Assembly: GCA_039028615.1 (NCBI GenBank)
Contig: JBCCHT010000037.1
Location: forward strand, 1-64,000
Source: Myxococcota bacterium
GTDB taxonomy: Bacteria; Myxococcota_A; Polyangia; Nannocystales; Nannocystaceae
Length of the DNA: 64,000 nt
Direction of reading: 5' to 3'
A program made the position numbers and the translations under genes. Shown here piece by piece: positions 2,720-16,932 of this stretch. Every line of letters begins with the position of its first letter. Position 1 is the first letter of the stretch. The notes under the pieces were generated by a model that ran no database searches, was not told the DNA's origin, and saw only the letters and a program-made list of their open reading frames with translations.

Positions 2720-4246
2720 ATGGATACCGTGCAGCTGCACCTCAATGGGGAAGCGCTCGAGGTCTCGGGGGTCAGCCCCACGATGACCTTGTTGGAGTAC
2801 CTGCGAGGCGAGCGAAGCCAATCCGGCACCAAGGAAGGCTGTGCCGAGGGCGATTGTGGGGCGTGCACGGTGGTGGTCATCGACCCCGAATCACCCGGCG
2901 GCCCACGTTTTCGCGCCGTGAACAGCTGTCTGCTGCTGTTGCCGCTGTTGCACGGGAAACACGTGTACACGGTCGAATCACTGCGTTCGGGCCCGCCCGC
3001 GCGACCTGGCGACGAGGGCTACCACCCGGTGCAAGAGGCCCTGGTGGCCAAGCTCGGTTCGCAATGCGGCTACTGCACGCCGGGGGTCATCATGTCGATG
3101 TTCGAGGCGTGTTATCGCGACGACCTCGACGCCCCGTGGAAGCTCGATGATCAGATGTGCGGCAACTTGTGTCGCTGCACGGGGTACCGACCGATTCGCG
3201 AGGCCACGGTGCAGATCGCCGGGAAGCGTCCCGACGACCGGTTCTCTGCCGCTCTCCAGGCGGCCGCCGATGGGCCACCCGCTCCCGCGCTCGCGTACCG
3301 CTACGAACCGCCCGCCGCCTCGGGGCATCGGCCACAGCGCTTTTGGATCCCGCGGACCTTCGACGAGTTGTTCGAGATTCGGGCCGAGCACCCTCAGGCG
3401 CGCCTGGTGGTGGGCGCGACCGATCTCGGGCTCGACGTGACCAAGCATGGCGAGCGCTTCGAGGCGATGATCTCGCTGCAGGGCATCGAGTCGCTGCGCA
3501 CGCTGACCCACGATGCGGGGCTCTGGAGCATCGGCGCGACGGTACGCCTGGCCGACCTCGAGGACGTCACCGATCACGCGCTGCCGCCCATCGCTCGCAT
3601 CTTGCGGTTCTTCGGTTCGCGACAGATCAAAAACGGCGCCACCGTGGGCGGCAACCTGTGCAACGCCTCGCCCATCGGTGACCTCGCGCCCGTGCTGCTG
3701 TCGCTCGGGGCCACCATGGTCATGCGCGGCTCCGCGGGGGAGCGCGAGGTGTCCATCGACGACTTCTTCGTCGGCTATCGCAAGACGGTGCTCACGGCCG
3801 ACGAGTTATTGGTTCGCGTCGAGCTTTCCGACCCTCCGCCCGAGGCCCGCATCGGCGCCTACAAGGTCTCCAAGCGCCGCGAGATGGACATCAGCGCGGT
3901 CGCGGCTGGGCTGCGCGTGGACGTGGTCGACGGCGTGGTGAAGGCGGCTCGCTTCGGCTTCGGGGGCATGGCCGCGACCCCGGCTCGGGCCTCGCAGGCC
4001 GAGGCGGCGGTGGTGGGGCAGGCGTGGTCGCAGCAGGCGTGCGAGGCGGCGGCGCGGGCCGTGGCGAACGACTTCACGCCCATGTCGGATCATCGCGGCT
4101 CGGCCTGGTACCGATCGACGGTCGCCGCGAATCTGTTGCGCGGGTTCTTTGCCGATACCGCGGAGCAACCGGTGCCCCGACTGCCCGACCGCCCCACGGG
4201 GACGTTGCTGGGGTCCACCACCCTCGCCACGGAGGCCCAGCCATGA
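2720..4246 (+). CDS. xdhA: Xanthine dehydrogenase small subunit (2x[2Fe-2S] + FAD)
   Basis: GTKEGCAEGDCGAC, SQCGYCTPG, GNLCRCTGYRPI, GGNLCNASPIGD, YKVSKRREMDIS. Confidence 0.93.
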   Translation: MDTVQLHLNGEALEVSGVSPTMTLLEYLRGERSQSGTKEGCAEGDCGACTVVVIDPESPGGPRFRAVNSCLLLLPLLHGKHVYTVESLRSGPPARPGDEGYHPVQEALVAKLGSQCGYCTPGVIMSMFEACYRDDLDAPWKLDDQMCGNLCRCTGYRPIREATVQIAGKRPDDRFSAALQAAADGPPAPALAYRYEPPAASGHRPQRFWIPRTFDELFEIRAEHPQARLVVGATDLGLDVTKHGERFEAMISLQGIESLRTLTHDAGLWSIGATVRLADLEDVTDHALPPIARILRFFGSRQIKNGATVGGNLCNASPIGDLAPVLLSLGATMVMRGSAGEREVSIDDFFVGYRKTVLTADELLVRVELSDPPPEARIGAYKVSKRREMDISAVAAGLRVDVVDGVVKAARFGFGGMAATPARASQAEAAVVGQAWSQQACEAAARAVANDFTPMSDHRGSAWYRSTVAANLLRGFFADTAEQPVPRLPDRPTGTLLGSTTLATEAQP

Positions 4247-6567
4247 AGAGCCCATCCGCGCCTCCGAGCCCGCTGCACCAGTCGACGATTCACGACAGCG
4301 GCCATCGACACACGTCGGGGCAGGCGCGCTACGTCGACGACTGGCCGCTGCCGCCGGGTACCGGTCACGGCTGGGTCGTCACCTCGCCGCATGCCCACGC
4401 AAAAATCCTGCGGCGCGACGCCACCGCGGCGCGGGCCCTGCCCGGCGTGCATGCGGTGCTGTTCGCCGATGCCGTCCCGGGCAACCCGCTCATCGGACCC
4501 ATCGTTCACGACGAGGAGCTGCTCGCCAGCGAACGGGTGCACTACGTCGGGCAGATCGTCGCGCTGGTGGTGGCCGAGGACCTGGCCACCGCTCGCGATG
4601 CGGCGGCGCAGCTGGTCATCGAGTACGAGCCGCTGCCCGCGGTGCACACCATCGACGAGGCGATCGAGCACGACCAGTACATCGGGCAGCCGCACGTCAT
4701 CGCCCGCGGGGATGTCGATGCGGCCCTGGCCGAGGCCACGATCCGCGTCACGGGCGAGGTCCGCTGCGGCGCCCAAGACCACTTCTATCTCGAGACGCAG
4801 GCCGGCCTGGCCTTCCCCGAGGAAGACGGCTGCTTCACCGTCCTGTCGTCGACCCAGCACCCCACCGAGGTGCAAAACGAAATCGCGGCGGTGCTGGGTG
4901 TCGGGGCCAACAAGGTGGTGTGCCAGGTGCCGCGCATGGGCGGTGGCTTCGGGGGCAAGGAGTCCCAGGCCACGCCCTTCGCCTGTCTCGCCGCGCTCGG
5001 GGCCCAGGTCACGGGGCGGCCGGTCAAGGTGTGGCTCAACCGCGAACGCGACATGCGGATCACGGGCAAGCGCCACCCCGTGCTCGGTCGCTACGACGCG
5101 GGCTTCGATGCCGAGGGCAACCTGCTGGCGCTGCGGGCCGAGGTGTTCAGCGACGGGGGCTTTTCGGCCGACCTGTCGCTGCCCGTGCTCGACCGGGCGC
5201 TGTTCCACCTCGACAACGCCTACTACGTGCCCGCGCTGCACTTCACCGGCCGAGCCTGTCGCACCAATCGCCCCTCGAATACCGCCTTCCGCGGCTTCGG
5301 TGGCCCGCAGGGCATGGTGGTGGTCGAAGAGGTCATGGCGCGCGCGGCCGAGCGCATGGGCGTGGACCCGGCACAGCTGCGGGCGCGCAACTACTATGGT
5401 GCCGCCCCGCGCGACCGGGCGCCCTACGGCCAAGAGGTCAAGGCCGAGCACAACCGCCTCGACCGCATCCACACCGAGCTGATGGCGAGCAGCGAGTACG
5501 CCGAGCGTCGGGCGTCCATCGAGGCGAGCCATGGCGACTCGCCGTGGATCAAGCGGGGCATCGGCTTCCAGCCGGTGAAGTTCGGCATCTCCTTCACCAA
5601 GAGCATCCTCAACCAGGCGGGGGCGCTGGTGTTGGTCTACGCCGACGGCACGGTGCAGCTGAACCACGGCGGCACCGAGATGGGGCAGGGGCTCCACACC
5701 AAGATGCTCACCGTGTGTGCCCACGAGCTCGGCGTGCCGACCTCGGCCATCCGGGTCATGGACACGGCCACCGACAAGGTGCCCAACACGTCGGCCACGG
5801 CGGCGAGCAGCGGCTCGGACCTCAACGGGCAGGCGGTCAAGGAGGCGTGCGAGATCCTCCGCGAGCGCCTGCGCGGGGTCGCGGCCGCGATGCTCGAGCT
5901 GTCGCAGGACGAGGCGACCGACCTTCGCTTCGCGGGCGGGGCGGTCACCCATCCCGCCAGTGCGCGCTCGCTGTCGTTTGCCGAGGTCGCCCAGCAGGCC
6001 TGGCTGACCCGCGTCTCGCTATCCTCGACCGGTTTTTATTGCACGCCGGGCGTCGGCTACGACCACGCCACCGGCTCGGGCACGCCCTTTTACTACTACG
6101 CGTACGGCGGGGTCGTGTGCGAGGTCGAGGTCAACGGGCTGACGGGAGAGCACCGCGTGTGCCGGGTCGACATCCTGCACGACGTGGGCACCTCGCTCGT
6201 CCCGAGCATCGATCGCGGCCAGGTCGAGGGTGGCTTCGTGCAGGGCATGGGCTGGCTGACCTGCGAAGAAGTGCTGACCACCGCCGACGGGCACCCGATC
6301 ACACTCGGTCCCTCGACCTACAAGATCCCGGCCATCGGTGACGTGCCGCTCGACTTTCGGGTCGAGCTGCTGCCTCGGGCGCCGCAGCCGGGGGTGATCC
6401 ACGGCAGCAAGGCGGTGGGCGAGCCTCCCTTCATGCTGTCGATCGGGGTGGTCACGGCGTTGCGTCACGCCATCGGAGGCTTCGGTCCGGGCGAAGTCGA
6501 GCTTGCCTTGCCGGCCACGCCCGAGGCGATCCTCCGCGCCGTCGAGGCCCAAAAAACCCCGACGTAG
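4243..6567 (+). CDS. xdhB: Xanthine dehydrogenase molybdopterin-binding subunit
   Basis: QDHFYLE, MGGGFGGKESQ, AFRGFGGPQG, GTEMGQGLHTK, SKAVGEPP (catalytic Glu). ATG at 4243 overlaps the xdhA stop (ATGA), with GGAGG upstream. Confidence 0.93.
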   Translation: MKSPSAPPSPLHQSTIHDSGHRHTSGQARYVDDWPLPPGTGHGWVVTSPHAHAKILRRDATAARALPGVHAVLFADAVPGNPLIGPIVHDEELLASERVHYVGQIVALVVAEDLATARDAAAQLVIEYEPLPAVHTIDEAIEHDQYIGQPHVIARGDVDAALAEATIRVTGEVRCGAQDHFYLETQAGLAFPEEDGCFTVLSSTQHPTEVQNEIAAVLGVGANKVVCQVPRMGGGFGGKESQATPFACLAALGAQVTGRPVKVWLNRERDMRITGKRHPVLGRYDAGFDAEGNLLALRAEVFSDGGFSADLSLPVLDRALFHLDNAYYVPALHFTGRACRTNRPSNTAFRGFGGPQGMVVVEEVMARAAERMGVDPAQLRARNYYGAAPRDRAPYGQEVKAEHNRLDRIHTELMASSEYAERRASIEASHGDSPWIKRGIGFQPVKFGISFTKSILNQAGALVLVYADGTVQLNHGGTEMGQGLHTKMLTVCAHELGVPTSAIRVMDTATDKVPNTSATAASSGSDLNGQAVKEACEILRERLRGVAAAMLELSQDEATDLRFAGGAVTHPASARSLSFAEVAQQAWLTRVSLSSTGFYCTPGVGYDHATGSGTPFYYYAYGGVVCEVEVNGLTGEHRVCRVDILHDVGTSLVPSIDRGQVEGGFVQGMGWLTCEEVLTTADGHPITLGPSTYKIPAIGDVPLDFRVELLPRAPQPGVIHGSKAVGEPPFMLSIGVVTALRHAIGGFGPGEVELALPATPEAILRAVEAQKTPT

Positions 6568-6853
6568 GCTGGTTGCTCACCCGCCGTGCGGGCGTCGTGG
6601 CGTCGGTCCAAACGGGCCGGGCCCGGCGCGACACCGGTGGGAGAGGGCAGGGCGGTGGCATCGGGCCACGGGGCGCCGGGACAGCGGGCCGAGACCCGGG
6701 GATCGCGAGCGGGCCTGCGCGGCATCCTGGCCGCGAATGGGGCCAAACGCGGCCTCAGCGTGCCCGGAGCGCCGAATCACGACGGCCGGCCGTTGTGACG
6801 GCGTGCATCGGATCGTGGAATCAAAACGGTGGGTGCTCTAGACTCCGTGCCCG

Positions 6854-8428
6854 ATGTCGCAGCCCCTGCTCGAACCGGTCACCGCCGGTCAGACGCGGTT
6901 TCGCATGCAGGGCCTGTCGCCGGATGCACGCGGGATCGCGGTCGGTCGCGAGGTCCTGGTGACCTTCCCGTCCATCGACTGGATGGTCGCCTTTTTGGGG
7001 GCCTACAGCGATGAGGCCAACCTCGACGACCTGCTGCCCACCATGACCCTCGAGCACGCGCGGCGCCACGAAGGCGGCCACGTGCTGTTGCTGCGATGCG
7101 CGGCGGGGGATGGCTATGCCGTCGATCGCCTGGGTCGTCTGGCGGGGGCCACCCGCGGTCAGATCTATACGGGCGGCGGCTCGGTGTTCGTGCGCTGGCG
7201 CCAGCGCGACGCACCCTTCGGCTACGACCTGGTCTCGCCGCAGGCCCCCGAGGGCGAAGAGGTGCAGGTCATCGACCGCGACTACGCCTCGGCCTACACC
7301 ACCGTCGACCGCATGGATCCGGTCGAGCTGATCCAGCGCTTGCAGCTGCGTCAGGTGCCGCTGCCCATGGCGGGCATCGCCGCCGATCCCGACCAGTGCG
7401 GCCTCAAGGACCTGGCCTTGGCCCTGGTGAGCCCGGGCATCGCCTCTCGCGTGCTGCGGCACCTTTGGCGGCTCGAGACCAACTTCGCCGGCTACTACGT
7501 GCAGCTCGACGACGACGATCGGGCGAGCCTGTTACTGCGCATTCGCCAGCCGCTGGGGCGCGTGCTCGACCTGCTGCACGGCACCCCGGGCGTGGAGCTG
7601 ATGGCCCCCGTGTCGTCGCGGGCGGCGGTCGAGGTCGGCTATCGCCACCCCATCGCGCTGGGGTCGGCCTCGGCCTGCCTGCCCGGCGAAGAGATGTTCC
7701 TGTTCCGCGGCAAGGTCGGCCGAGTCGAGCGACTGCCCGGCCCGCCGCGATTCGTCGACGGCCGCCACCTGGTCGAGGCCACGGGCTCGGCCAACCTGCG
7801 CGACCCCGGTCAGCTACGCGAGGCGGACCTCGTGCCCCTGCAGGTCGAGCTGCAGGTGCGACCCGCCTCGAATCCGCGGGAGCCTCGGGCCACGCTCATC
7901 GCCTGGGAGCAGGTCGGCCTGCTGCGGCACCTGGTGTACCTGGTGCCGCCCAGTGCTCTGGCCGCATCGCGCGTGGTACCGCTGGCGGAAGGCGTGGTGG
8001 TCATCACCGGGTCGTCCATCGGCGGGCGTGCTCGGGCGGCGGGGGCCGGCATCGGAGCCGGGGCCATCGTGCCGCTGGGGCGTCGCATGGGCGAGGTGGC
8101 TCCGGGCGTCCTGGTGCCCGATGGCTACGAGCTGTGGCCGCGCGTGCGCCCCACCTTGATGCGAGAGCTGCTGGGGCTCGGTTCCGAGGACCACGCCATC
8201 TTCTTGCGCGCCGACGCCGACCCCATCCGGGTGACCCCCGAGCAGCTGCAGCCGCTCGACGCGGCGCTCATCGGTCGGCTCCAGCTCGACGACGCGGTAC
8301 CGATCGATCCGCAGGTGCCCGCCCTCGAGCCCGGGCGCATTCAAAACCGCAAGCTCGGTCGCTTTGCGCTGTGGGGCTACGGGCGCGCGCCCAAACCTTC
8401 CGACGACGGTCCGGGGCCCGGTCAGTAG
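6854..8428 (+). CDS. Hypothetical protein (524 aa), first gene of the MoxR/vWA operon; tentatively resembles ternary-conflict-system accessory domains
   Basis: Long ORF with high-GC codon bias and globular composition (e.g. VELMAPVSSRAAVEVGYRHPI, VLVPDGYELWPRVRP); 7 bp from the next ATG. Confidence 0.75.
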   Translation: MSQPLLEPVTAGQTRFRMQGLSPDARGIAVGREVLVTFPSIDWMVAFLGAYSDEANLDDLLPTMTLEHARRHEGGHVLLLRCAAGDGYAVDRLGRLAGATRGQIYTGGGSVFVRWRQRDAPFGYDLVSPQAPEGEEVQVIDRDYASAYTTVDRMDPVELIQRLQLRQVPLPMAGIAADPDQCGLKDLALALVSPGIASRVLRHLWRLETNFAGYYVQLDDDDRASLLLRIRQPLGRVLDLLHGTPGVELMAPVSSRAAVEVGYRHPIALGSASACLPGEEMFLFRGKVGRVERLPGPPRFVDGRHLVEATGSANLRDPGQLREADLVPLQVELQVRPASNPREPRATLIAWEQVGLLRHLVYLVPPSALAASRVVPLAEGVVVITGSSIGGRARAAGAGIGAGAIVPLGRRMGEVAPGVLVPDGYELWPRVRPTLMRELLGLGSEDHAIFLRADADPIRVTPEQLQPLDAALIGRLQLDDAVPIDPQVPALEPGRIQNRKLGRFALWGYGRAPKPSDDGPGPGQ

Positions 8429-8435
8429 GCGCCCA

Positions 8436-9626
8436 ATGGCCCGCAGCCTCCCCGAATTCGTCGAGGAATTCGTCGAGCCCCTGCTCGGCGGAGGCCAGCT
8501 CACGGTGGGCCCGCCGTTTCGGCTGCGCGACAGGGCCATGATGAGCGAGCAGACGGGCACCTTGCTCGACGACTCGCTCCGCTTGCTTCGCCTGCGGCGG
8601 GCCCAGAGCCTGGTGGCCAACCCCAGCCTGCCCGACCCCGACGAAGACGAGCTCAGCCTGTGGATCGGCCTGCACAACACGCTGGTCTTCGACCATCCCG
8701 ATCGCGATCGGGTGTGGTCTCGGGCCGCGACCTGGCGCCGCGTCGAAGGGGCGACCCGCAGCATGTTGACCTTGCCCAGCCCCACCAAGGCCGACGACGC
8801 CATCGCGCGGCACGTGTCGGTGGGGGCCGCCATCGACCTGATGCGTCACGACCTGGTGGTGCGCACGGCGGCGGGTGAGCTGCGCTTGCCGGGACAAGAG
8901 CTGTCGCGTCGCGGCGCCCGAGCGGTGGTCCCCGGCGACGGCATCGTGCACGAGCACGTGGCGTGGATCGAACAGCCGCACGCCCCCGAGGCCGAGCGCC
9001 TGCTCGAAGATGCCCTGCGCGCGTCGCCGCTGACCTGCGTGCTGCAGCCGCTGCTGGCTCCCGCCGGGTGGTCTCCGCTCTCGGCCGCCGAGGCGTTCAC
9101 CGATCGGGCGTTGGTGCGCGCGATCTGCCACTGCTGGGCGCGGCAGCGCGACTGGGTGGCGGTGGGCGGGGCAGTCGCGGGGGCGCTGCTGCCTTCGGTG
9201 CCCGGCGCCGCGGGTGAGGATCCTGCCCCCGAGTCCGCCGAGGGCGCGCCGCTGGCCTTGCCCGGGGCCGTGCTCCCCACCGACCCCCGCGTGCTCAGCG
9301 GGGTCGTCGGCGCCCTGGTCCACCTGCACTTCCTCAAGGTCGTCGAACTCGATGCTCGACTCGGCGTGGCCGCGGTCAGCCGAGACCCGGGCGTGACGAC
9401 CTTCTTGGCCCTTCCGCTCCTGCTCCCCGAGCTCCAGGCGACGATGGGTGCTCCGCTGGGCGGGCTGGAATCGACCGAGGGCGGCCGGGCCGGACGTGAC
9501 CACGTCGATGCGCCCCTCGTGCGCCGCTGGACCGAATACCTCGATCACCTCCAAGAGCTCGTGCCCCGCAGCGCCGTCGACAAACTGCTGGCGAGCCTCA
9601 TACCCCGGATCGTACAAACACCGTGA
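8436..9626 (+). CDS. Hypothetical protein (396 aa), second gene of the MoxR/vWA operon
   Basis: ATG at 8436; helical, Leu/Ala-rich; stop overlaps the start of the AAA ATPase (GTGA). Confidence 0.75.
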   Translation: MARSLPEFVEEFVEPLLGGGQLTVGPPFRLRDRAMMSEQTGTLLDDSLRLLRLRRAQSLVANPSLPDPDEDELSLWIGLHNTLVFDHPDRDRVWSRAATWRRVEGATRSMLTLPSPTKADDAIARHVSVGAAIDLMRHDLVVRTAAGELRLPGQELSRRGARAVVPGDGIVHEHVAWIEQPHAPEAERLLEDALRASPLTCVLQPLLAPAGWSPLSAAEAFTDRALVRAICHCWARQRDWVAVGGAVAGALLPSVPGAAGEDPAPESAEGAPLALPGAVLPTDPRVLSGVVGALVHLHFLKVVELDARLGVAAVSRDPGVTTFLALPLLLPELQATMGAPLGGLESTEGGRAGRDHVDAPLVRRWTEYLDHLQELVPRSAVDKLLASLIPRIVQTP

Positions 9627-10831
9627 CCATGGCCGCTCCCGCCAACGCTCCCACACCCGACGCCGGTGTGGCCGACCTCTCCCGCCGCCTCCAGGAGGGC
9701 GCCCGCCAGCTCCAGGCCCAGTTCTTGGGCAAGGAAGAGATCATCCGGCTGCTGTTCATCAGCGCGGTGGCGGGCGAGCACCTGGTGATGGTGGGTCCGC
9801 CCGGCACCGCCAAGAGTGCCCTTTTGCGGGGCTTCGCCCAGATCATCGAGGCGCAGTACTTCGACTACCTGCTGACCCGCTTCACCGAGCCCAACGAGAT
9901 CTTCGGCCCGGTCGACATCCAGGCCTTCCGCGACGGCTCCTATCGCCGCCGCGTCGAGGGCATGCTGCCCGAGGCCGAGGTCATCTTCCTCGACGAGATC
10001 TTCAAGGCCAACAGCGCCATCCTCAACAGCCTGCTGACCCTGCTCAACTCGCGCCGCTACACCCACGGCAACGAGACCATGCGGGTGCCGCTCATCTCGA
10101 TGTTCGCGGCCAGCAACGAGGTCCCCAGCGACGACGCCCTGTCGGCGCTCTTCGACCGCTTCCTGCTGCGGGTACGCGTCGACTATCTCGACAGCTATCA
10201 CTTCCGCGGACTGCTGCAAAAAGGCATCGAGCTGGAGGCCTCGGGCATGAACCCCGACGCGGCCCCGCTGAAGCCGGTCATCACCGCGACCGAGCTGCGC
10301 GACCTGCAGCGCCGCTTCGCCACGCTGCTCGAGTTCGGCGAGGACTTCCTGGCCACCTTCAAGGGCTTGGTGTTCCAGATCCGCTCCGAGGGCATCGGCC
10401 TGTCCGACCGCCGGATCGTCAAAATGCTCAAGCTCTTCGCCGCCTCGGCCGTGTTCGACGGGCGCTCGCAGGTCAACGACTCCGACCTGTTCGTACTGCG
10501 CCACGTGTGGAACACCCCCGAGCAGCAGGAAATCCTGCAAGAGGTCGTCGGCCCCGTGCTCGACCAGTGGTACGAGCAACACCCCGACCAGGCCCGCATC
10601 GGCGCCACCCCGACCAACCTCAGCGACCTGCTCGAGGAACTCCGCATCATCCGCGAGACGCTCACCGGCTCCGAGGTGCTCTCCGACATGCAGCTGTTCA
10701 GCCAGCTGCGCAACTTGGGCGACATCAAGGCCGCGCTCATGCGCATGCCCGACAACGCCACCGCCCAGCGCATGGTGGGCGAGGTCGACAAGCTGCTGGA
10801 GACGATGTTCGCCTCGAGTCGCTTCGTATGA
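9623..10831 (+). CDS. MoxR-family AAA+ ATPase, RavA-like
   Basis: Walker A GPPGTAKS, RavA-type LLTRFTEPNEIFGP, Walker B IFLDEIFKANSAILNSLL, sensor ASNE, ALFDRFLLR, lid motif LSDRRIVK. Start is GTG 9623 or ATG 9629. Confidence 0.92.
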   Translation: MTMAAPANAPTPDAGVADLSRRLQEGARQLQAQFLGKEEIIRLLFISAVAGEHLVMVGPPGTAKSALLRGFAQIIEAQYFDYLLTRFTEPNEIFGPVDIQAFRDGSYRRRVEGMLPEAEVIFLDEIFKANSAILNSLLTLLNSRRYTHGNETMRVPLISMFAASNEVPSDDALSALFDRFLLRVRVDYLDSYHFRGLLQKGIELEASGMNPDAAPLKPVITATELRDLQRRFATLLEFGEDFLATFKGLVFQIRSEGIGLSDRRIVKMLKLFAASAVFDGRSQVNDSDLFVLRHVWNTPEQQEILQEVVGPVLDQWYEQHPDQARIGATPTNLSDLLEELRIIRETLTGSEVLSDMQLFSQLRNLGDIKAALMRMPDNATAQRMVGEVDKLLETMFASSRFV

Positions 10832-10843
10832 TGGGAGCACCCG

Positions 10844-12295
10844 GTGGCCGAGCGTAGCGAAGGCACCAGCTCCGCCCAGTTCGAGCGACAGGTGGGCACC
10901 ATGGCCCTGTCCCAGCTCGAGGGGGCAGGGGCGCTCGCCATGATGCGGGCGGTGGCCTGGCACAACGCCCTGGCGCGGCTGGGCTACGCGGTGCCGCTGG
11001 TGGTCGTGCACGACCTCGGGTGCCTCGTCGCCGGCCTCGGGCGCCCCGCCAATCAGCTCCGTGGGCTCGGGGATCCCGACATCGGCGAGGGCTGGCGGCG
11101 GCTGCTCGTCGAGCTGGCCGACGCCGAGCTCGTGCGCAGCCAGGCCGGCTGGAAGCACCGCGACCCCATGGTCGGCGTGGTGCTGGCTCGCATCATCTCG
11201 AGCATCGTGCCGCAGCTGCCCGAAGAGGTGCGGGTGCTTCGGCCGAGCATGCTGCCCGTCGACGTGGTGCAGTACACCCGGGTCGAGCCCAACTCCGCGT
11301 TCAACCGCTACGACCAGTCGGTGGCCACCGCGTGGCTGCGGGGCATGCAAGAGCACCGCTTGCTCGCCATCCTCGAGGTGGAGCAGATCGACCTCGATGC
11401 CCTGCGCTTGCTCGGCCTGTTCCGCGGCGGCGATGCGCTGCCCGGGGTCGACCTCGCCGACCTGTACAACGTCATCATCAGCCCCTCGCTGGCCGACGTC
11501 ATCGACTTCTCGATGGAGCTTCTGCCCTCCATCCTCGAGGCCAAGCGCGAGGCGGGGCAGCAGTCGTTTTCCATCGACGGCTACGCCTCCATCGAGCGGC
11601 GCGGCAACATCGACGACCTCGTCCTGACCCAGCTGGCCTACGACAACGACGTCTTCGAGCAGAAGCTCGTCGACCGCGAGCTGTTTTACTTCACCCACGA
11701 AAAGCAGCTCGAGAACGAGCGGCGCACCCACCAGGTGCTGGTCGACGGCAGCGCCTCCATGCGAGGCGTCCGCGAGGTCTTCGCTCGCGGCCTGGCCCTG
11801 GCCTTGTGCAAGCGCCTGGCCTTGCTGGGCGAAGACGTGGTCCTGCGTTTCTTCGACAGTCGGCTCTACGAGGGGGTCAAGGTCAGCGGTACGGGCAGCG
11901 CCGAGGTCCCCTATGCGCTGCAGTTTCGGGCCGAGCGGGGCCGCAACTACGCCCGGGTCATTCGCCAGCTCAACTCCGAGCTCAACCAGCCGCGCCGCCG
12001 TGAAGGCCAGTCGCTGGTGTATCTGCTGACGCACGGCGAGTGCCAGCTGCCGCCCGACGACGTGCAGCAGCTCGCCACGCGGGCGCCCATCTACGGGGTC
12101 TACATCCTGCCCAGCGGGCCGCTGGAGCTGCCCTATCTCGAGAGCCTGCACCGCATCCACGTCATCGATGCCGAGGCGATCAGCCACGGTCGCCGGGCCC
12201 ACAAGGCGCGTCAGATCCTCGACGAGGTGCAGGGCGACCTCCAGGGCCGGGGCACGCGTGAACGCAGCGGAGCCCGCTCGGGGAGGCGCTCGTGA
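10844..12295 (+). CDS. von Willebrand factor A domain protein (MoxR partner; helical N-terminus, C-terminal vWA)
   Basis: VLVDGSASM (DxSxS) at ~11744; vWA-like strands VVLRFFDS, VYLLTHGE, IYGVYI; GGGAG upstream of the GTG start. Confidence 0.85.
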   Translation: MAERSEGTSSAQFERQVGTMALSQLEGAGALAMMRAVAWHNALARLGYAVPLVVVHDLGCLVAGLGRPANQLRGLGDPDIGEGWRRLLVELADAELVRSQAGWKHRDPMVGVVLARIISSIVPQLPEEVRVLRPSMLPVDVVQYTRVEPNSAFNRYDQSVATAWLRGMQEHRLLAILEVEQIDLDALRLLGLFRGGDALPGVDLADLYNVIISPSLADVIDFSMELLPSILEAKREAGQQSFSIDGYASIERRGNIDDLVLTQLAYDNDVFEQKLVDRELFYFTHEKQLENERRTHQVLVDGSASMRGVREVFARGLALALCKRLALLGEDVVLRFFDSRLYEGVKVSGTGSAEVPYALQFRAERGRNYARVIRQLNSELNQPRRREGQSLVYLLTHGECQLPPDDVQQLATRAPIYGVYILPSGPLELPYLESLHRIHVIDAEAISHGRRAHKARQILDEVQGDLQGRGTRERSGARSGRRS

Positions 12296-14130
12296 TCGAT
12301 ACCGCCGTCTTGTGGGTGCGGGCCGAGGCCAACGTCCGGGCGGGGCGTCACGCCGACGCGCTCGTGCACCTGCGGCACCTGGTCGAGGTCGTCGACCGCA
12401 TCGACTTCGAGTACGAGGAGTGGCTGCGGGCGATGGTCGAGTGCCTGCGGGCGCTGGCCCTGTGGCGCGAGGGGGCGGCCTGCTCCGCGTACCTGGGGGC
12501 CACCGAAGTGCCGGGCCCCGGGTCGCTCGAAGCCCAGATCGAGCGGGTCAAGGCGGGAGACGCCAACGCTCGCCGCGGCATGCGTCTGATGGGCATCTAC
12601 CTGTCGCGGGCCAACGAACACGCCGACGCGGCGGAGTGGTTTCGGGCCTCGGGCATGGCCGTGCACCGGGCCATCGAGCTCGAGCGGGCGGGCCAAGACG
12701 CCGAGGCGGCCCAGCTGTGGCAGGAGATCATGAACGTCGACGAGCTGCGGGACCGCCCCTACGAGCTCGCGCTGGTCAAGATCAACTACGGCCTGTGCCT
12801 GCATCGGCTCGGGCACGAGCGCGCCCGCATGGCGCTGGCCGAGGCCACCACCGCCGTCGAGGAAGTCGCCGACCACTTCGAGACCGAGGGGCTACGCGAG
12901 CGCGCCTTCGACTGCTACCAGCTGCTCGCGCGCCTGGGCAGCGAGGCGGGGGCCTTCGAGAACATCGCCGAGGGCTACCTCAACAGCGTTCGAATTCTGC
13001 GCGACGACGGCCTCAAGCTCGACGCCCTGCGTCTGTACGAGGCCTTCGTGACGCTGGCCCGGCGCTCGAGCGAGTGGCACGCGGCGGCCAGCATCCTGCG
13101 CGAGGCGGCCGACTACTGCACCCGGGCCGCGCTGCCCTACGCCGACGACCTGCGCCTGCGCAGCGCCGAGGCGTGGCTGCGGGCGGGCAGCGAGGCCCAG
13201 GCGGCCGGCCACCCCCTGCAGATCGTCGAAAATGCTCTGCTGGCGGCAGCGGAGGCGTTTGCGTCGGTACGGGCCTTCGCTCAGGTCGTCGACGTCTACC
13301 AGCGCCTCGCCAACCTCGAGCTGCCGCTCAAGGCCCGCGAGCGCTACCGCCGGCTGGTCGATCGCCTGGGCAACGAGCAGGTCGACGCGCCGCGTCCCGT
13401 GCCCGTGCCCGAGTTCCTCAAGCAACTGCCCGAGTACGAAGAGGTCTGGTACGTCGACCTGGCCGAGTGGGAGCTCGACGGCGACCCGGGGCTCATCGCG
13501 GCCGGCATCATGGCCGACCGCCGCTTCCCCGACTTCGTGCGGCGCCATGCGCTGCTGCTGGTGCTCGCGCTCGAGCTCGACCGCAAGGGCGAGGAGCTCG
13601 ACCCCATCGAGGTGGTGCGGCGGCTCGAGGCCATTCGCGCCTACCCGGTCATCGCGGCGCTCGAGCGGCTCTTCGAACGCCCGGTCACCAAGGTCCGCGA
13701 GACGGTCGCCGCCGCCATGGGCAGCCTCCGCTTCAAGCGGAGCTTCACCCTGGTGGGCAAGGCCCTGCGCGACGATGCGGCCTCGGTGCGCGAGGCGGCG
13801 GCCAACGCCACGTCGCGGCTCATCTTCCCCCACGCCTTCGAGCCCCTGCGACGGATCTTCGAGGCTCGCGACTTGCCCGACCCCGAGCGGGCCCGGGCCG
13901 CGGCGTTGCGAGCGATTGGCAAGATCAACACTGTCGAGGCCCTCGAGGCCCTGTGCGACCGCCTGCGCGAGGGCAACAAGCAGCACATCGAGCTGGCCCT
14001 GCACGCGCTCGGCGACCTCACCAATCCCGAGCTGCTGCCCTACCTGCGGCATCAGATCGAGCTGGTGCCGCCGGCCTATCGCGCGGTGGTGGAAGACACG
14101 ACGCGCCGCCTCGAGCGACGCGCTCGCTGA
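12292..14130 (+). CDS. TPR/SNAP-like alpha-solenoid protein with C-terminal HEAT repeats
   Basis: Repeated helical pairs (AAEWFRASG, AAQLWQEI, AFDCYQLL, AASILREAADY); HEAT motifs VRETVAAAMGSL, VREAAANATSRL, ARAAALRAIGKI, ALHALGDL. GTGA overlap with the vWA gene. Confidence 0.82.
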   Translation: MIDTAVLWVRAEANVRAGRHADALVHLRHLVEVVDRIDFEYEEWLRAMVECLRALALWREGAACSAYLGATEVPGPGSLEAQIERVKAGDANARRGMRLMGIYLSRANEHADAAEWFRASGMAVHRAIELERAGQDAEAAQLWQEIMNVDELRDRPYELALVKINYGLCLHRLGHERARMALAEATTAVEEVADHFETEGLRERAFDCYQLLARLGSEAGAFENIAEGYLNSVRILRDDGLKLDALRLYEAFVTLARRSSEWHAAASILREAADYCTRAALPYADDLRLRSAEAWLRAGSEAQAAGHPLQIVENALLAAAEAFASVRAFAQVVDVYQRLANLELPLKARERYRRLVDRLGNEQVDAPRPVPVPEFLKQLPEYEEVWYVDLAEWELDGDPGLIAAGIMADRRFPDFVRRHALLLVLALELDRKGEELDPIEVVRRLEAIRAYPVIAALERLFERPVTKVRETVAAAMGSLRFKRSFTLVGKALRDDAASVREAAANATSRLIFPHAFEPLRRIFEARDLPDPERARAAALRAIGKINTVEALEALCDRLREGNKQHIELALHALGDLTNPELLPYLRHQIELVPPAYRAVVEDTTRRLERRAR

Positions 14131-14224
14131 GGTGGGCAGCGTCCGGGGCCGACTTGCGAGCACGAGGTGATCGGGGCACTGACCCCGGTCGCCTGCTAGG
14201 CTGCGCGACCCGAGGCGCCCGGCG

Positions 14225-15634
14225 ATGAGCGAGTCCCCACAAACCGACGAGCGGCAGTCCACGCTGTCGCTCGTGCTCGAGGCCGTCCGCGGCAGCGACC
14301 GCGACTTCGCCCGGCTCGACCTACGCCGTGCCATCCCGCTGCTGGCCATCCCCATGGTCTTCGAGATGGCGATGGAGGCCATCTTCGCCATCGTCGACGT
14401 GTTCTTCGTGTCGCGGCTGGGGCCGGCCGCCATCGCGACGGTGGGGCTGACCGAGTCGGTGATCACCATCGTCTATGCGCTCGGGGTCGGCGTCGCGATG
14501 TCGGTGACCGCCATGGTTTCCCGGCGCTGGGGCGAGGGCAAGCGCGACGAGGCGGCCATGGTCGGCGGCCAGGCGATGATGGTGGGCCTGGGCATCGGCC
14601 TGGTGCTCGGGGTGCCCGCGCCGTGGTTCGCCGCCGACATCCTCCGCATGATGGGGGCCGAGCCCGACGTGGTGGAGATGGGCAGCGGGTTCACGGCGGT
14701 CGCGTTGGCGGCCAACCCGGTCATCATGCTGCTGTTCATCCTCAACGCGATCTTTCGCGGGGGAGGGGACGCGGCCTCGGCCATGCGGGCGCTGTGGATC
14801 GCCAACGGCGTCAACCTCATCCTCGACCCGTGCCTCATCTTCGGTCTCGGGCCTTTTCCCGAGCTCGGCGTCATGGGGGCCGCGGTCGCCACCACCATCG
14901 GGCGCAGCCTGGGCGTGGTCTATCAGCTTCGCGTGCTGTGGACGGGCCCCCGCGTGCGCCTGACCGCGGCGTGCCTGCGCCCGCGACTGTCGGTCATCGT
15001 CGACATCCTGCGCGTGTCCGTGGGCGGGGTGGGGCAGTACCTCATCGGTACCGCCAGCTGGATCGCCTTGGTGCGCATCCTGGCCGAGTTCGGCTCCGAC
15101 GTGGTGGCTGGCTACACGGTCGCGATGCGCATCGTCATCTTCGCGTTGCTGCCCTCGTGGGGCTTCGCCAACGCCACCGCGACCTTGGTGGGACAGAGCC
15201 TCGGCGCGGACGATCCCCGGCGAGCCGAGCGAGCCGTGCTCTATAGCGGGCTGTACAACATGGTGTTCCTCGGGCTCATCTCGGCGATCTTCATCGCCAT
15301 TCCCGACGCCGTGACCGGGTTGCTCGCCGAGGAAGCCGAGGTCCAGCGCTGGGCCTCGCGGGCGCTGTTCATCATCAGCTTCGGCTACATGTTCTACGCG
15401 TGGGAGATGGTGCTGCTCAACGCCTTCAACGGCGCCGGCGACACCCGAACGCCCTCGCTCATCAACCTGGTGTGCTTCTGGGCGGTCGAGATCCCGCTGG
15501 GCTATTGGCTCGCCTACGAGGGCGGTTGGGGCCCCGACGGGGTGTTCGTCGCCGTGGCGTTCGCCTACTCCCTCGCCGCCGTCGTCGCCTTCGTGGCGTT
15601 CCGACGGGGCGGGTGGAAGAACGTGACGCTGTAG
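14225..15634 (+). CDS. MATE family efflux transporter
   Basis: About 12 TM segments; LAIPMVFEM, VDVFFVSRLG, AIFRGGGD, NLILDP, GVMGAAVAT, LVGQSLGA, NGAGDT. Confidence 0.92.
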   Translation: MSESPQTDERQSTLSLVLEAVRGSDRDFARLDLRRAIPLLAIPMVFEMAMEAIFAIVDVFFVSRLGPAAIATVGLTESVITIVYALGVGVAMSVTAMVSRRWGEGKRDEAAMVGGQAMMVGLGIGLVLGVPAPWFAADILRMMGAEPDVVEMGSGFTAVALAANPVIMLLFILNAIFRGGGDAASAMRALWIANGVNLILDPCLIFGLGPFPELGVMGAAVATTIGRSLGVVYQLRVLWTGPRVRLTAACLRPRLSVIVDILRVSVGGVGQYLIGTASWIALVRILAEFGSDVVAGYTVAMRIVIFALLPSWGFANATATLVGQSLGADDPRRAERAVLYSGLYNMVFLGLISAIFIAIPDAVTGLLAEEAEVQRWASRALFIISFGYMFYAWEMVLLNAFNGAGDTRTPSLINLVCFWAVEIPLGYWLAYEGGWGPDGVFVAVAFAYSLAAVVAFVAFRRGGWKNVTL

Positions 15635-15643
15635 CGAGCGGGC

Positions 15644-16711
15644 TCAGCCCATGTAGTAGCTGAAGCCCAGCATCAGCATGCTGGTGAAGGGCAGGTCGCC
15701 GCGGAAGCTGCCCACCAGCGCCTGGTAGCCCATGGACATGCCCAAGCCGTGGAAGTAGCGGTTGTTGCCCGAGCCCACCAGGCCCATGTCCAGGCGCAGT
15801 CGCGGACCATGGGGCAACAGGTTGTCGGTGAGCGCGGCGACCACCTGCGGGTCGTCGCCCTGCGGGGCCACGATGGGCGACGCATCGCTGCGGCGGTTGA
15901 CCACGCCGTAGTAGACGTCGTAGCCGACGCGGAGATCGAGGTAGCCGCGAGACAGCAGAGCCAAGCGCCCGAGGCCGAGGCTGAGGCCGCCGCCGAGCAT
16001 GCCGTTCATCTCGGCGCCCGTCTCTTCGGGGAGCACGAGCCGACCGCCCCAGCCGCTGAAGGTGGCCGCGACGCCGAAGTGATTCCACGCGGGGCCGACG
16101 TCGACGGTGGCCCCGCCCATGCGACCGCCCACGCTGTTCTGCCCGCCCATGTTGGCGAACAGAGCCCGCGCCGCGATGTTGAGGCGCACCGGGTTGTCGG
16201 CGGGTCGGTACTGAGCGGCGATGGCCGCTTCGATCGCGGCGTCGCGCTCCTCGGGCGACATGCTCGAGGGCGGCGCACCCACGGCCCGTGTCTTCACCGG
16301 GGCGGCAGGATCCGCATCGCCTTCACCGTCGAGCAAGCTCGGGTCGATGGCGGGCTCGCTGGCGGGAGGTTCGCCCGCAGCGCCTGCCTCGGCTTCGGTC
16401 GCCGGAGGTGACGAAGCCTCGGGTTCCGGCACTGCTCCTTCGGTGGGCTCGGGTACCGCGGCGTCGTTGCCCTCGGTCGGAGGAGCGGCCGCCGGATCGG
16501 TGACCGTTTCCTGGGGTGAAGGCGCGGGAACGCTTGGTTGAGCCGAGATCGTTTCGGTCGCGGCCGGGGGGGCAGCATCGGGAGTCGGTGCAGGCGATGC
16601 GTCCGCCTCTGGGCCGGCAGCAATGGCCGTTGAACTGAACGCAGGTCCCGTCACCAGAATCGCGACGGCAATGGTCCGCGGATCAGGAATGAAGCGCTGT
16701 AATGAGGCCAT
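15644..16711 (-). CDS. Exported protein with Pro/Ala/Glu-rich linker and probable C-terminal outer-membrane beta-barrel
   Basis: Signal-like N-terminus, long P/A/E/T low-complexity region, amphipathic beta strands ending MLGFSYYMG. Start uncertain (16711 or 16738). Confidence 0.65.
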   Translation of the reverse strand: MASLQRFIPDPRTIAVAILVTGPAFSSTAIAAGPEADASPAPTPDAAPPAATETISAQPSVPAPSPQETVTDPAAAPPTEGNDAAVPEPTEGAVPEPEASSPPATEAEAGAAGEPPASEPAIDPSLLDGEGDADPAAPVKTRAVGAPPSSMSPEERDAAIEAAIAAQYRPADNPVRLNIAARALFANMGGQNSVGGRMGGATVDVGPAWNHFGVAATFSGWGGRLVLPEETGAEMNGMLGGGLSLGLGRLALLSRGYLDLRVGYDVYYGVVNRRSDASPIVAPQGDDPQVVAALTDNLLPHGPRLRLDMGLVGSGNNRYFHGLGMSMGYQALVGSFRGDLPFTSMLMLGFSYYMG

Positions 16712-16932
16712 CGGCAACAGGCTAGCGCCCCATGACACGTTCGGCGAGTGTTTGGCCGCCAGGCCGGTACAGATTGCGTGAGATAGAAAGGATGTGCCGA
16801 ACGTCGTGTGTCCCTAGGCGGAGGCTTGACCTTTTCCCACGTCCGTCTACAGTTCGCGACTCAGCACCATGGTCGGGCGTGCGCAGGCATCGCTCGACAT
16901 TGCTCCCCACCCGATTCGCGACGAACACCGAA

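Follow-up and report, generated by a model that had tools for sequence, protein, structure and literature searches.

A compact five-gene MoxR-vWA operon of Polyangia related to the predicted propeller and FtsH ternary systems

Pairs of a MoxR-class AAA+ ATPase and a protein with a von Willebrand factor A (vWA) domain have been studied as RavA-ViaA, CoxD-CoxE, Mg-chelatase and midasin (Kaur et al. 2020, PMC7159879). In 2020, larger MoxR-vWA ternary systems were predicted computationally as conflict systems of multicellular bacteria (Kaur et al., eLife 9:e52696). The propeller and FtsH subsystems of this group likely share a common ancestor, and the propeller systems "show no conventional effector modules" (Kaur et al., PMC7159879). 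Here, we describe an operon from a Myxococcota bacterium of the family Nannocystaceae (order Nannocystales, class Polyangia), which is located in the first 64,000 nucleotides of contig JBCCHT010000037.1 (assembly GCA_039028615.1); this whole stretch is referred to as the window. The operon (positions 6854–14130, forward strand) comprises five genes, named g1 to g5, that encode two accessory proteins, a MoxR-class ATPase (g3), a divergent vWA protein (g4) and a helical scaffold protein (g5). Judged from its sequence features, it looks like a third, minimal branch of the MoxR-vWA ternary group, without propeller or FtsH. An earlier inspection of the DNA without database searches (the sequence-only reading) had regarded it as a candidate conflict or protein-remodelling system.

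The ATPase gene g3 (9623–10831) starts with GTG and encodes 402 aa. Its product matched the Pfam family bpMoxR (PF20030) with an E-value of 1.8e-78 (262.7 bits, cut-off 27), and further matches were obtained to AAA_5 (5e-28) and AAA_lid_8 (5e-14). The P-loop/Walker A motif GPPGTAKS (residues 58–65), the Walker B motif LDE (123–125), sensor-1 N165 and the arginine finger R179 could be read from the translation. GPPGTAKS represents the GxxxTAKS variant, which has been described as characteristic of both propeller and FtsH ternary systems (Kaur et al. 2020, PMC7159879). The AAA+ module aligned with E. coli RavA (PDB 3nbx; E 3.6e-49, residues 21–329), and the earlier description of g3 as a RavA-like AAA+ protein was thus borne out by both the bpMoxR and the RavA match. 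The score against the NCBIfam RavA model (NF010054) was 195.7 bits and thus below the cut-off of 681, with the match ending at residue 324 of 402. We therefore classify the g3 product as a predicted bpMoxR-type ATPase with a RavA-like AAA+ module.

The partner gene g4 (10844–12295, GTG start) encodes 483 aa. About 290 conserved residues at the N-terminus precede a divergent vWA domain, whose core extends to about residue 455. The metal ion-dependent adhesion site (MIDAS) reads D301-x-S303-x-S305, and T396-H397-G is found where the second aspartate is expected, such that the classical T-D-G of vWA domains is changed to T-H-G and the second MIDAS aspartate to histidine. D301, S305, T396 and H397 are invariant over 18 g4 orthologues, and position 303 is Ser or Thr. 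This replacement fits the literature, according to which one or even both of these aspartates are missing from some vWA domains in the FtsH and propeller systems (Kaur et al., PMC7159879). The vWA signal of the window's own protein was faint (ivWA 13.1 bits, cut-off 35). At the family level, ivWA was matched by 14 of the 18 members (best E 2.8e-6), VWA_2 by four, and ivWA-helical_N by three (best E 0.024). The nearest named Atlas clusters were VWA_2/VWA_CoxE (0.95–0.96), and a search of PDB sequences with the g4 profile yielded 0 matches. No propeller family was detected in the window's protein or in the g4 family, and the g4/g5 junction follows directly. Hence, g4 is predicted to be a divergent vWA protein of the "ivWA" type known from the FtsH ternary systems; the earlier vWA label is weak for the window's own protein and clear for its family.

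The first gene, g1 (6854–8428, ATG start), encodes 524 aa. The window's own g1 matched bpX2 weakly (E 0.041), and the fvmX7 model gave no match on the window's own genome, where the control gave none either. Across the g1 family, bpX2 was matched by 20 of 29 members (best E 4.3e-8) and fvmX7 by eight of 29 (best E 2.3e-11), and three distant homologues scored above the curated fvmX7 cut-off. Going by these profile matches, g1 is a member of the bpX2/fvmX7 family, and this family link is solid. An AlphaFold2 (AF2) model of g1 (mean predicted local distance difference test, pLDDT, 83.8; predicted template modelling score, pTM, 0.58) shows a soluble alpha+beta protein with tandem beta-alpha-beta-beta ferredoxin-like modules. 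Fold searches returned generic ferredoxin-like, ACT or PII matches only: the best Foldseek E-value was 8e-3, and the best VIA match (Z 7.6) covered residues 180–250, that is, one ferredoxin-like module. VIA rows for the C-domain of MecA/YpbH (Z 5.9 and 5.2) are leads only, and the g1 profile had 0 matches among PDB sequences. Invariant residues include Q13, D91, G123-Y124-D125 and H265. At the C-terminus, a disordered linker modelled with low confidence (479–500) is followed by the conserved motif N-x-x-LGRFALWG.

The second gene, g2, encodes 396 aa if translated from the ATG at 8436 (8436–9626). The open reading frame (ORF) was listed as 8364–9626, and the alternative TTG start at 8364 would overlap g1. 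According to an AF2 model (pLDDT 87.7, pTM 0.86), g2 is a helical protein with a small beta-sheet. No match was obtained in Pfam, NCBIfam, PADLOC or PDB sequences, and no fold relatives were recovered (Foldseek best E 0.16, VIA best Z 5.4); the Atlas contained no usable match, and its model was poor (pTM 0.22). The family is moderately large, with 632 representative clusters at an E-value threshold of 1e-3 (340 at 1e-30), and carries the conserved motifs PL..GG, ARH, R.D and SPLT. In 17 of 20 distant loci g2 was located beside g1 according to the g2 profile, six of these loci lying outside the training set of the profile.

The sequence-only reading had suggested that both proteins may be fvmX-like and had called for profile and fold searches. 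These searches tied g1 to bpX2/fvmX7 and connected g2 with no family or fold. All fvmX1 matches of g2 relatives remained below the threshold (1/15 and 2/44). An hhalign comparison of the g2 profile with three bona fide fvmX1 sequences gave E 0.011 and a probability of 3.7%, located on the SPLT motif, and hence no support for an identification of g2 as fvmX1. In control comparisons with fvmX1, the g1, g4 and g5 profiles reached E-values of 0.5–0.83. Against a single fvmX1 sequence, g2 reached a probability of 0.7%. A search for further fvmX1 sequences recovered the query itself only.

The last gene, g5 (12292–14130, GTG start), encodes an all-helical protein of 612 aa. Its C-terminal part (~423–590) consists of HEAT repeats of the PBS-lyase type (HEAT_2 E 2.2e-10, NblB 4.8e-7), and the g5 profile matched alphaRep proteins in the PDB (E 1.2e-43, positions 423–562). 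HEAT families were found in all 17 g5 family members, SNAP in seven, and TPR families in one to three each (TPR_2 in three), whereas the Pfam scan of the window's own g5 reported no TPR family. Of the TPR/HEAT architecture assigned earlier, the HEAT part is therefore well founded, and the TPR part is weakly supported, because the matches are weak and occur in relatives, none in the window's protein. The N-terminal ~420 aa may be TPR/SNAP-like. The alpha-SNAP matches in seven of 17 orthologues were weak (best E 8.3e-4). The TPR-like adaptor SNAP connects the AAA+ ATPase NSF with the substrate of NSF; for g5, this is an analogy and not evidence. The identity of g5 across Nannocystaceae ranged from 62 to 88%. 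With a maximum Kyte-Doolittle mean of 1.47 over 19 residues, g5 has no membrane segment, nor did it match any propeller family, in contrast to the membrane-anchored third component of the propeller systems, in which a variable N-terminal region and a membrane-spanning segment are combined with TPR and propeller regions at the C-terminus.

In its composition, the operon shares features with both described subsystems. Like the propeller systems (subsystem 4; Pfam bpMoxR, bpX0-6), it combines a bpMoxR-type ATPase carrying the GxxxTAKS P-loop with a divergent vWA protein lacking one MIDAS aspartate, a bpX2-family accessory protein and a helical-repeat third component, and it has no conventional effector; in contrast to them, it contains neither a vWA-propeller fusion nor a membrane-anchored propeller. 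With the simpler type of FtsH ternary systems (subsystem 3; Pfam ivWA, ivWA-helical_N, fvmX1-7), in which the highly divergent vWA domain is fused to a large helical domain at the N-terminus, it has in common the P-loop variant and, judged from family-level matches, probably the ivWA-type vWA protein with an N-terminal region and an fvmX7-like protein (the g1 family). The third component of these systems contains an inactive FtsH-type AAA+ domain followed by a second domain of this type, and no such protein is encoded by g1–g5. In the window's genome, no such double-FtsH protein was found with a single query taken from another genome of the class sample (G568); this query matched through its active AAA module only (39% identity, residues 479–666). 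NEFF1, radical-SAM and Ubl modules were absent from the five genes and their flanks. Consistent with the sequence-only reading, the locus thus encodes a MoxR-vWA system related to the predicted ternary systems, as indicated by the bpMoxR, ivWA and bpX2/fvmX7 matches, and since none of the five genes encodes FtsH, a propeller or an effector, its designation as a distinct variant is supported. The five-gene architecture may already be contained in the catalogue of Kaur et al., and our literature search found no experimental study of the operon.

Bona fide fvmX1 is rare in Myxococcota (1/151 and 2/401 genomes in the class and phylum samples, respectively), whereas operons of the window's type are common. 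The only clear fragment of an FtsH ternary system in the class sample of 151 genomes is found in G568 (locus L102, contig C13, 13773–16825), where the gene for an FtsH-type AAA protein of 699 aa lies downstream of a bona fide fvmX1 gene (E 1.4e-47); this genome has g1 and g4 orthologues elsewhere. The window's own genome carries a second, more canonical propeller-type MoxR locus on contig C11 (L009, 6674–17905), which encodes a bpMoxR (E 3.9e-84) and proteins of 682 aa (no Pfam match), 915 aa (bpX6 domain at the N-terminus, E 9e-23) and 680 aa; a gene for a Ser/Thr kinase-TPR protein of 990 aa lies in front of it. The resemblance between this locus and the window's operon is limited to the MoxR proteins (40% identity).

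RavA-ViaA of E. coli resembles the operon in the AAA+ module with which g3 aligns and in the position of the vWA partner gene after the ATPase gene. RavA, however, comprises ~500 aa with a LARA domain, which g3 lacks and for which it is too short, and the scores of g3 and g4 point in the same direction, with g3 below the RavA cut-off and g4 matching ViaA (NCBIfam NF008230) at E 0.078 and 12.1 bits (cut-off 500). Moreover, three further conserved partners are present here. The Bacteroides aerotolerance (Bat) operon encodes MoxR, DUF58, vWA and TPR proteins, which are membrane-associated and belong to other MoxR and vWA subfamilies. As in our operon, a MoxR ATPase is encoded there on the chromosome together with vWA and TPR partners, but a bpX2/fvmX7 or g2-like protein is not known from it. 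Finally, a 2026 preprint reports that a MoxR-vWA-propeller pathway of Actinobacteria (Esr, Actinomycetales) is required for the response to an epibiont threat and acts through a kinase/FHA relay (bioRxiv 10.64898/2026.09.08.750141). A MoxR-vWA pair at the core of a multi-protein pathway is common to Esr and the operon, whereas the surface filamentous propeller sensors, the kinase/phosphatase pair, the FHA proteins and the link to Esx secretion that are described for Esr have no counterpart among the five genes.

The co-orientation of the five genes and their junctions, as given by the sequence-only reading, were confirmed by the ORF list and by inspection of the junctions: a gap of 7 bp separates g1 and g2, a gap of 12 bp separates g3 and g4, and GTGA stop/start overlaps connect g2 with g3 and g4 with g5. 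The conservation of this arrangement was assessed by tblastn in 60 loci from a scan of one genome per species, all from Nannocystaceae or myxobacterial metagenome-assembled genomes (MAGs). All five genes occurred in the window's order in 48 of the 60 loci, which is far beyond chance, and another 11 loci were cut by contig ends. In the remaining locus (L020), g1-g2-g3 were found without g4-g5 within 7.5 kb downstream. This locus and L013 stem from one Nannocystaceae MAG, which contains two g1-g2-g3 copies on two contigs. With start codons picked by a simple rule, 4-bp overlaps were counted at the g2/g3 junction in 30 of 50 loci and at g4/g5 in 38 of 42. In contrast, the spacer between g3 and g4 is variable (median 96 bp); 10 of 48 loci have spacers longer than 300 bp, and the maximum is 5.8 kb. 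Those ORFs in the spacer that had a Pfam match are unrelated (an AAA_16 protein, methyltransferases and a Ser/Thr kinase on the opposite strand), and several others had no Pfam match. The operon is therefore composed of two coupled blocks, g1-g2-g3 and g4-g5. The five-gene order was also present in eight distant loci that represent six further families of the class (f7, f8, f11, f12, f14 and f15), and a locus from another class (L091) showed the order g1-g5-g2-g3-g4.

Within the order, 68 of 73 genomes carried g1, nearly always as a single copy, and all 17 genera were represented; of the 42 genomes that are at least 90% complete, 41 had the gene. In the phylum sample, 48 of 401 genomes had a g1 match. 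Of these, 43 belong to the same class (the window's genome included) and five lie outside it, one of them with E 0.005 only; g1 was found in 0 of 34 and 0 of 12 genomes of families f20 and f26, respectively. The class sample of 151 genomes contained g1 in 76 and g4 in 77 genomes, with both genes in 75 genomes, g1 only in one (G515), g4 only in two (G491, G494) and neither in 73. The tallies of the two genes were identical in 29 of the 30 listed families, the exception being f84 (0/2 for g1 and 1/2 for g4). As related genomes are not independent, this co-occurrence is a description and not a test. Similarly, the identity to the window of g1 covaried with that of g3, g4 and g5 across 42 loci (Spearman 0.73–0.86, values that are inflated by genome relatedness).

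In family f2 the linkage of the genes is lost, whereas the genes themselves are all retained. One example, a genome in a single contig of 9.9 Mb (G438), carries g3 at 2.57 Mb, g5 at 3.84 Mb, g4 at 8.30 Mb and g1-g2 at 9.23 Mb; its g3 orthologue is 58% identical over residues 19–401. The orthologues are likewise apart in G212, whereas G301 and G344 have g4 and g5 adjacent to each other and apart from both g3 and g1-g2. In a maximum-likelihood tree of 34 MoxR rows, which does not include locus L006 because this locus gave no match, the four dispersed g3 genes formed a clade (support 99/98) that was nested within a clade (98/92) containing operon-linked g3 genes of five other families. The second bpMoxR of the window's genome (contig C11) was placed on a branch with a length of 4.16, and the placement of such long branches is uncertain. 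The conservation of the five genes as a unit, on which the sequence-only reading had made its interpretation depend, therefore holds in most lineages and fails in family f2, where the genes are nevertheless all kept.

All five genes are under purifying selection. The ratio of nonsynonymous to synonymous substitutions (omega; Nei-Gojobori, whole-gene averages of the window against four close relatives) was 0.13–0.20 for g1, 0.22–0.31 for g2, 0.11–0.17 for g3, 0.10–0.15 for g4 and 0.13–0.15 for g5. None of the models of PADLOC-DB 2.0 was matched; g3 and g5 gave chance-level scores only (E ≥ 0.01), and g1, g2 and g4 gave none. When 72,556 plasmids and 50,697 phages were searched, g1 had no match, and g4 had a single one with 16% coverage on a Hymenobacter plasmid.

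The five reading frames have a GC content at third codon positions (GC3) of 0.88–0.94 in a window with 70% GC, and we therefore regard them as coding. An antisense ORF of 885 aa (9545–12202, reverse strand), which extends over g3 and g4 and would be favoured by a naive gene caller, has a GC3 of only 0.70 compared to 0.92–0.94 for the real genes and is therefore considered an artefact of high GC content. No membrane segment is predicted in any of the five proteins, because no segment of 19 residues had a Kyte-Doolittle mean above 1.74. A scan of positions 6300–14600 detected 0 promoter-like sites and five terminator-like sites (1.9 ± 1.7 expected), none of the latter at gene ends. The flanking genes are unrelated, as the sequence-only reading had it. 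Upstream, Pfam identified the FAD/2Fe-2S subunit (2720–4246, forward strand) and the molybdopterin subunit (4024–6567, forward strand) of a xanthine-dehydrogenase-type enzyme; as listed, these ORFs overlap by 223 bp, and the true start of the molybdopterin subunit probably lies further downstream than 4024. Downstream, a MatE gene (14225–15634) follows. These xanthine-dehydrogenase-type genes recurred upstream in three of the 60 loci (L011, L012 and L060), and MatE was also found in three of 60. In the window, MatE sits between g5 and a gene on the reverse strand (15644–16738) for a 364-aa protein without Pfam match, in which a signal-like N-terminus and a Pro/Ala-rich linker are combined with a C-terminal part rich in beta structure. 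According to tblastn, this protein is the convergent neighbour just after g5 in 20 of the 60 Nannocystaceae loci, and it was not found in the 20 distant loci.

The reading that we favour, at about even odds, is that the operon encodes a standing, vertically inherited ATP-driven protein-remodelling complex of Polyangia rather than a mobile defence island. Extrapolating from the studied MoxR-vWA pairs, g3 would form a hexameric ring on which g4 would dock, holding a client peptide at its modified MIDAS (Asp-Ser-Ser-Thr, with His for the second Asp), and hydrolysis of ATP would drive a conformational change in the bound protein or its release. The g5 protein, made together with g4, could provide a platform for the client or for assembly, whereas the g1-g2 pair might be the client itself or an adaptor that selects the substrate. 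A candidate docking peptide is the C-terminal motif of g1, which follows the disordered linker. The outcome of the remodelling activity may be the assembly or activation of a lineage-specific complex, or the switching of a signalling pathway.

Several observations weigh against a standing remodelling complex and partly favour a genuine threat-sensing or conflict system of the ternary kind described by Kaur et al. that became fixed in Polyangia, which we consider possible, though less probable. The MoxR-vWA pair of such a system would tentatively act as an ATP-dependent threshold, while g5 and/or g2 might sense a signal derived from the invader; g1 and g2 could conceivably represent the output, for example by dominant-negative or containment effects that involve no classical toxin domain. 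The families to which the proteins are linked, namely bpMoxR (including the GxxxTAKS P-loop of g3), bpX2/fvmX7 for the g1 family and ivWA for the g4 family, were defined from systems predicted as conflict systems, and the propeller systems likewise do without conventional effectors (Kaur et al., PMC7159879). The related Esr pathway is reported to sense an epibiont threat (bioRxiv 10.64898/2026.09.08.750141). The carriers of the operon are social myxobacteria with large genomes, and g2 is the fastest-evolving part, with a dN of 0.20–0.25 compared to 0.05–0.07 for g3 (two to three times higher). The near-silence of the plasmid and phage collections carries little weight, because myxobacterial plasmids and phages are few in them, the insertions that separate g3 from g4 in 10 of 48 loci show that the system can do without tight co-transcription of its five genes, and the core distribution may be compatible with a fixed, vertically inherited immune sensor. 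Nonetheless, the conflict reading fits poorly with a system that is single-copy and near-universal in the order and retains all its parts even when these are scattered over the chromosome. An omega of 0.10–0.31 leaves no hypervariable part at the whole-gene level, the neighbouring genes are metabolic or transport genes and not defence genes, PADLOC gave no match, and no kinase, FHA, peptidase, nuclease or membrane part is present among the five proteins. It is because of this single-copy core status, the retention of the parts after scattering, the purifying selection and the non-defence context that we prefer the standing remodelling complex.

The variable spacer between g3 and g4 could also mean that two independent modules are merely neighbours, with g1-g2-g3 forming one and g4-g5 serving another ATPase. 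The long spacers with unrelated insertions, the genomes G301 and G344, in which g4-g5 stay together apart from g3 and from g1-g2, and locus L020 with its solitary g1-g2-g3 fit this arrangement. It is improbable, however, considering that the presence of g1 and g4 nearly matches over the 151 genomes (75 with both, three with one, 73 with neither) and that the identity of g1 covaries with that of g3, g4 and g5, with the inflation by relatedness noted above. In addition, it would be atypical of this protein class for a MoxR to lack a vWA partner, or for such a vWA protein to lack a MoxR (Kaur et al., PMC7159879). The FAD/2Fe-2S and molybdopterin subunit genes upstream (2720–6567) bring to mind a maturation system for a molybdenum enzyme of the xanthine dehydrogenase family. 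A Mo-Cu enzyme of this family is matured by the MoxR protein CoxD and the vWA protein CoxE. The CoxD-CoxE pair is also listed among the MoxR-vWA pairs (Kaur et al., PMC7159879). We regard such a role of the operon as very improbable: because the upstream genes are rarely shared (three of 60 loci and 0 of 20 distant loci), the link to the molybdoenzyme was rejected on synteny, and in addition the five genes are scattered in family f2 and g3 is of the bpMoxR/RavA type.

The MoxR-vWA ternary systems have hardly been tested since their prediction in 2020. The compact form of the operon, which lacks effector, propeller and FtsH and behaves as a core component of the cell, makes it a clean test case for the MoxR-vWA core, and several of its carriers (Nannocystis, Enhygromyxa, Plesiocystis and Paraliomyxa) are cultivable, so that it can be studied at the bench. 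The g1 and g2 families are probable clients or adaptors, for which confident models are available and no fold relatives are known. More speculatively, the operon might have arisen from the ternary conflict systems by domestication to a housekeeping role. It would then encode a five-protein cytoplasmic assembly machine that is indispensable to the social myxobacteria with large genomes in Polyangia, and its client would be g1-g2, which represent two families without a solved fold. If this is true, at least the propeller/FtsH branch of the MoxR-vWA systems would consist of cell-biological remodelling devices and not of immune weapons.

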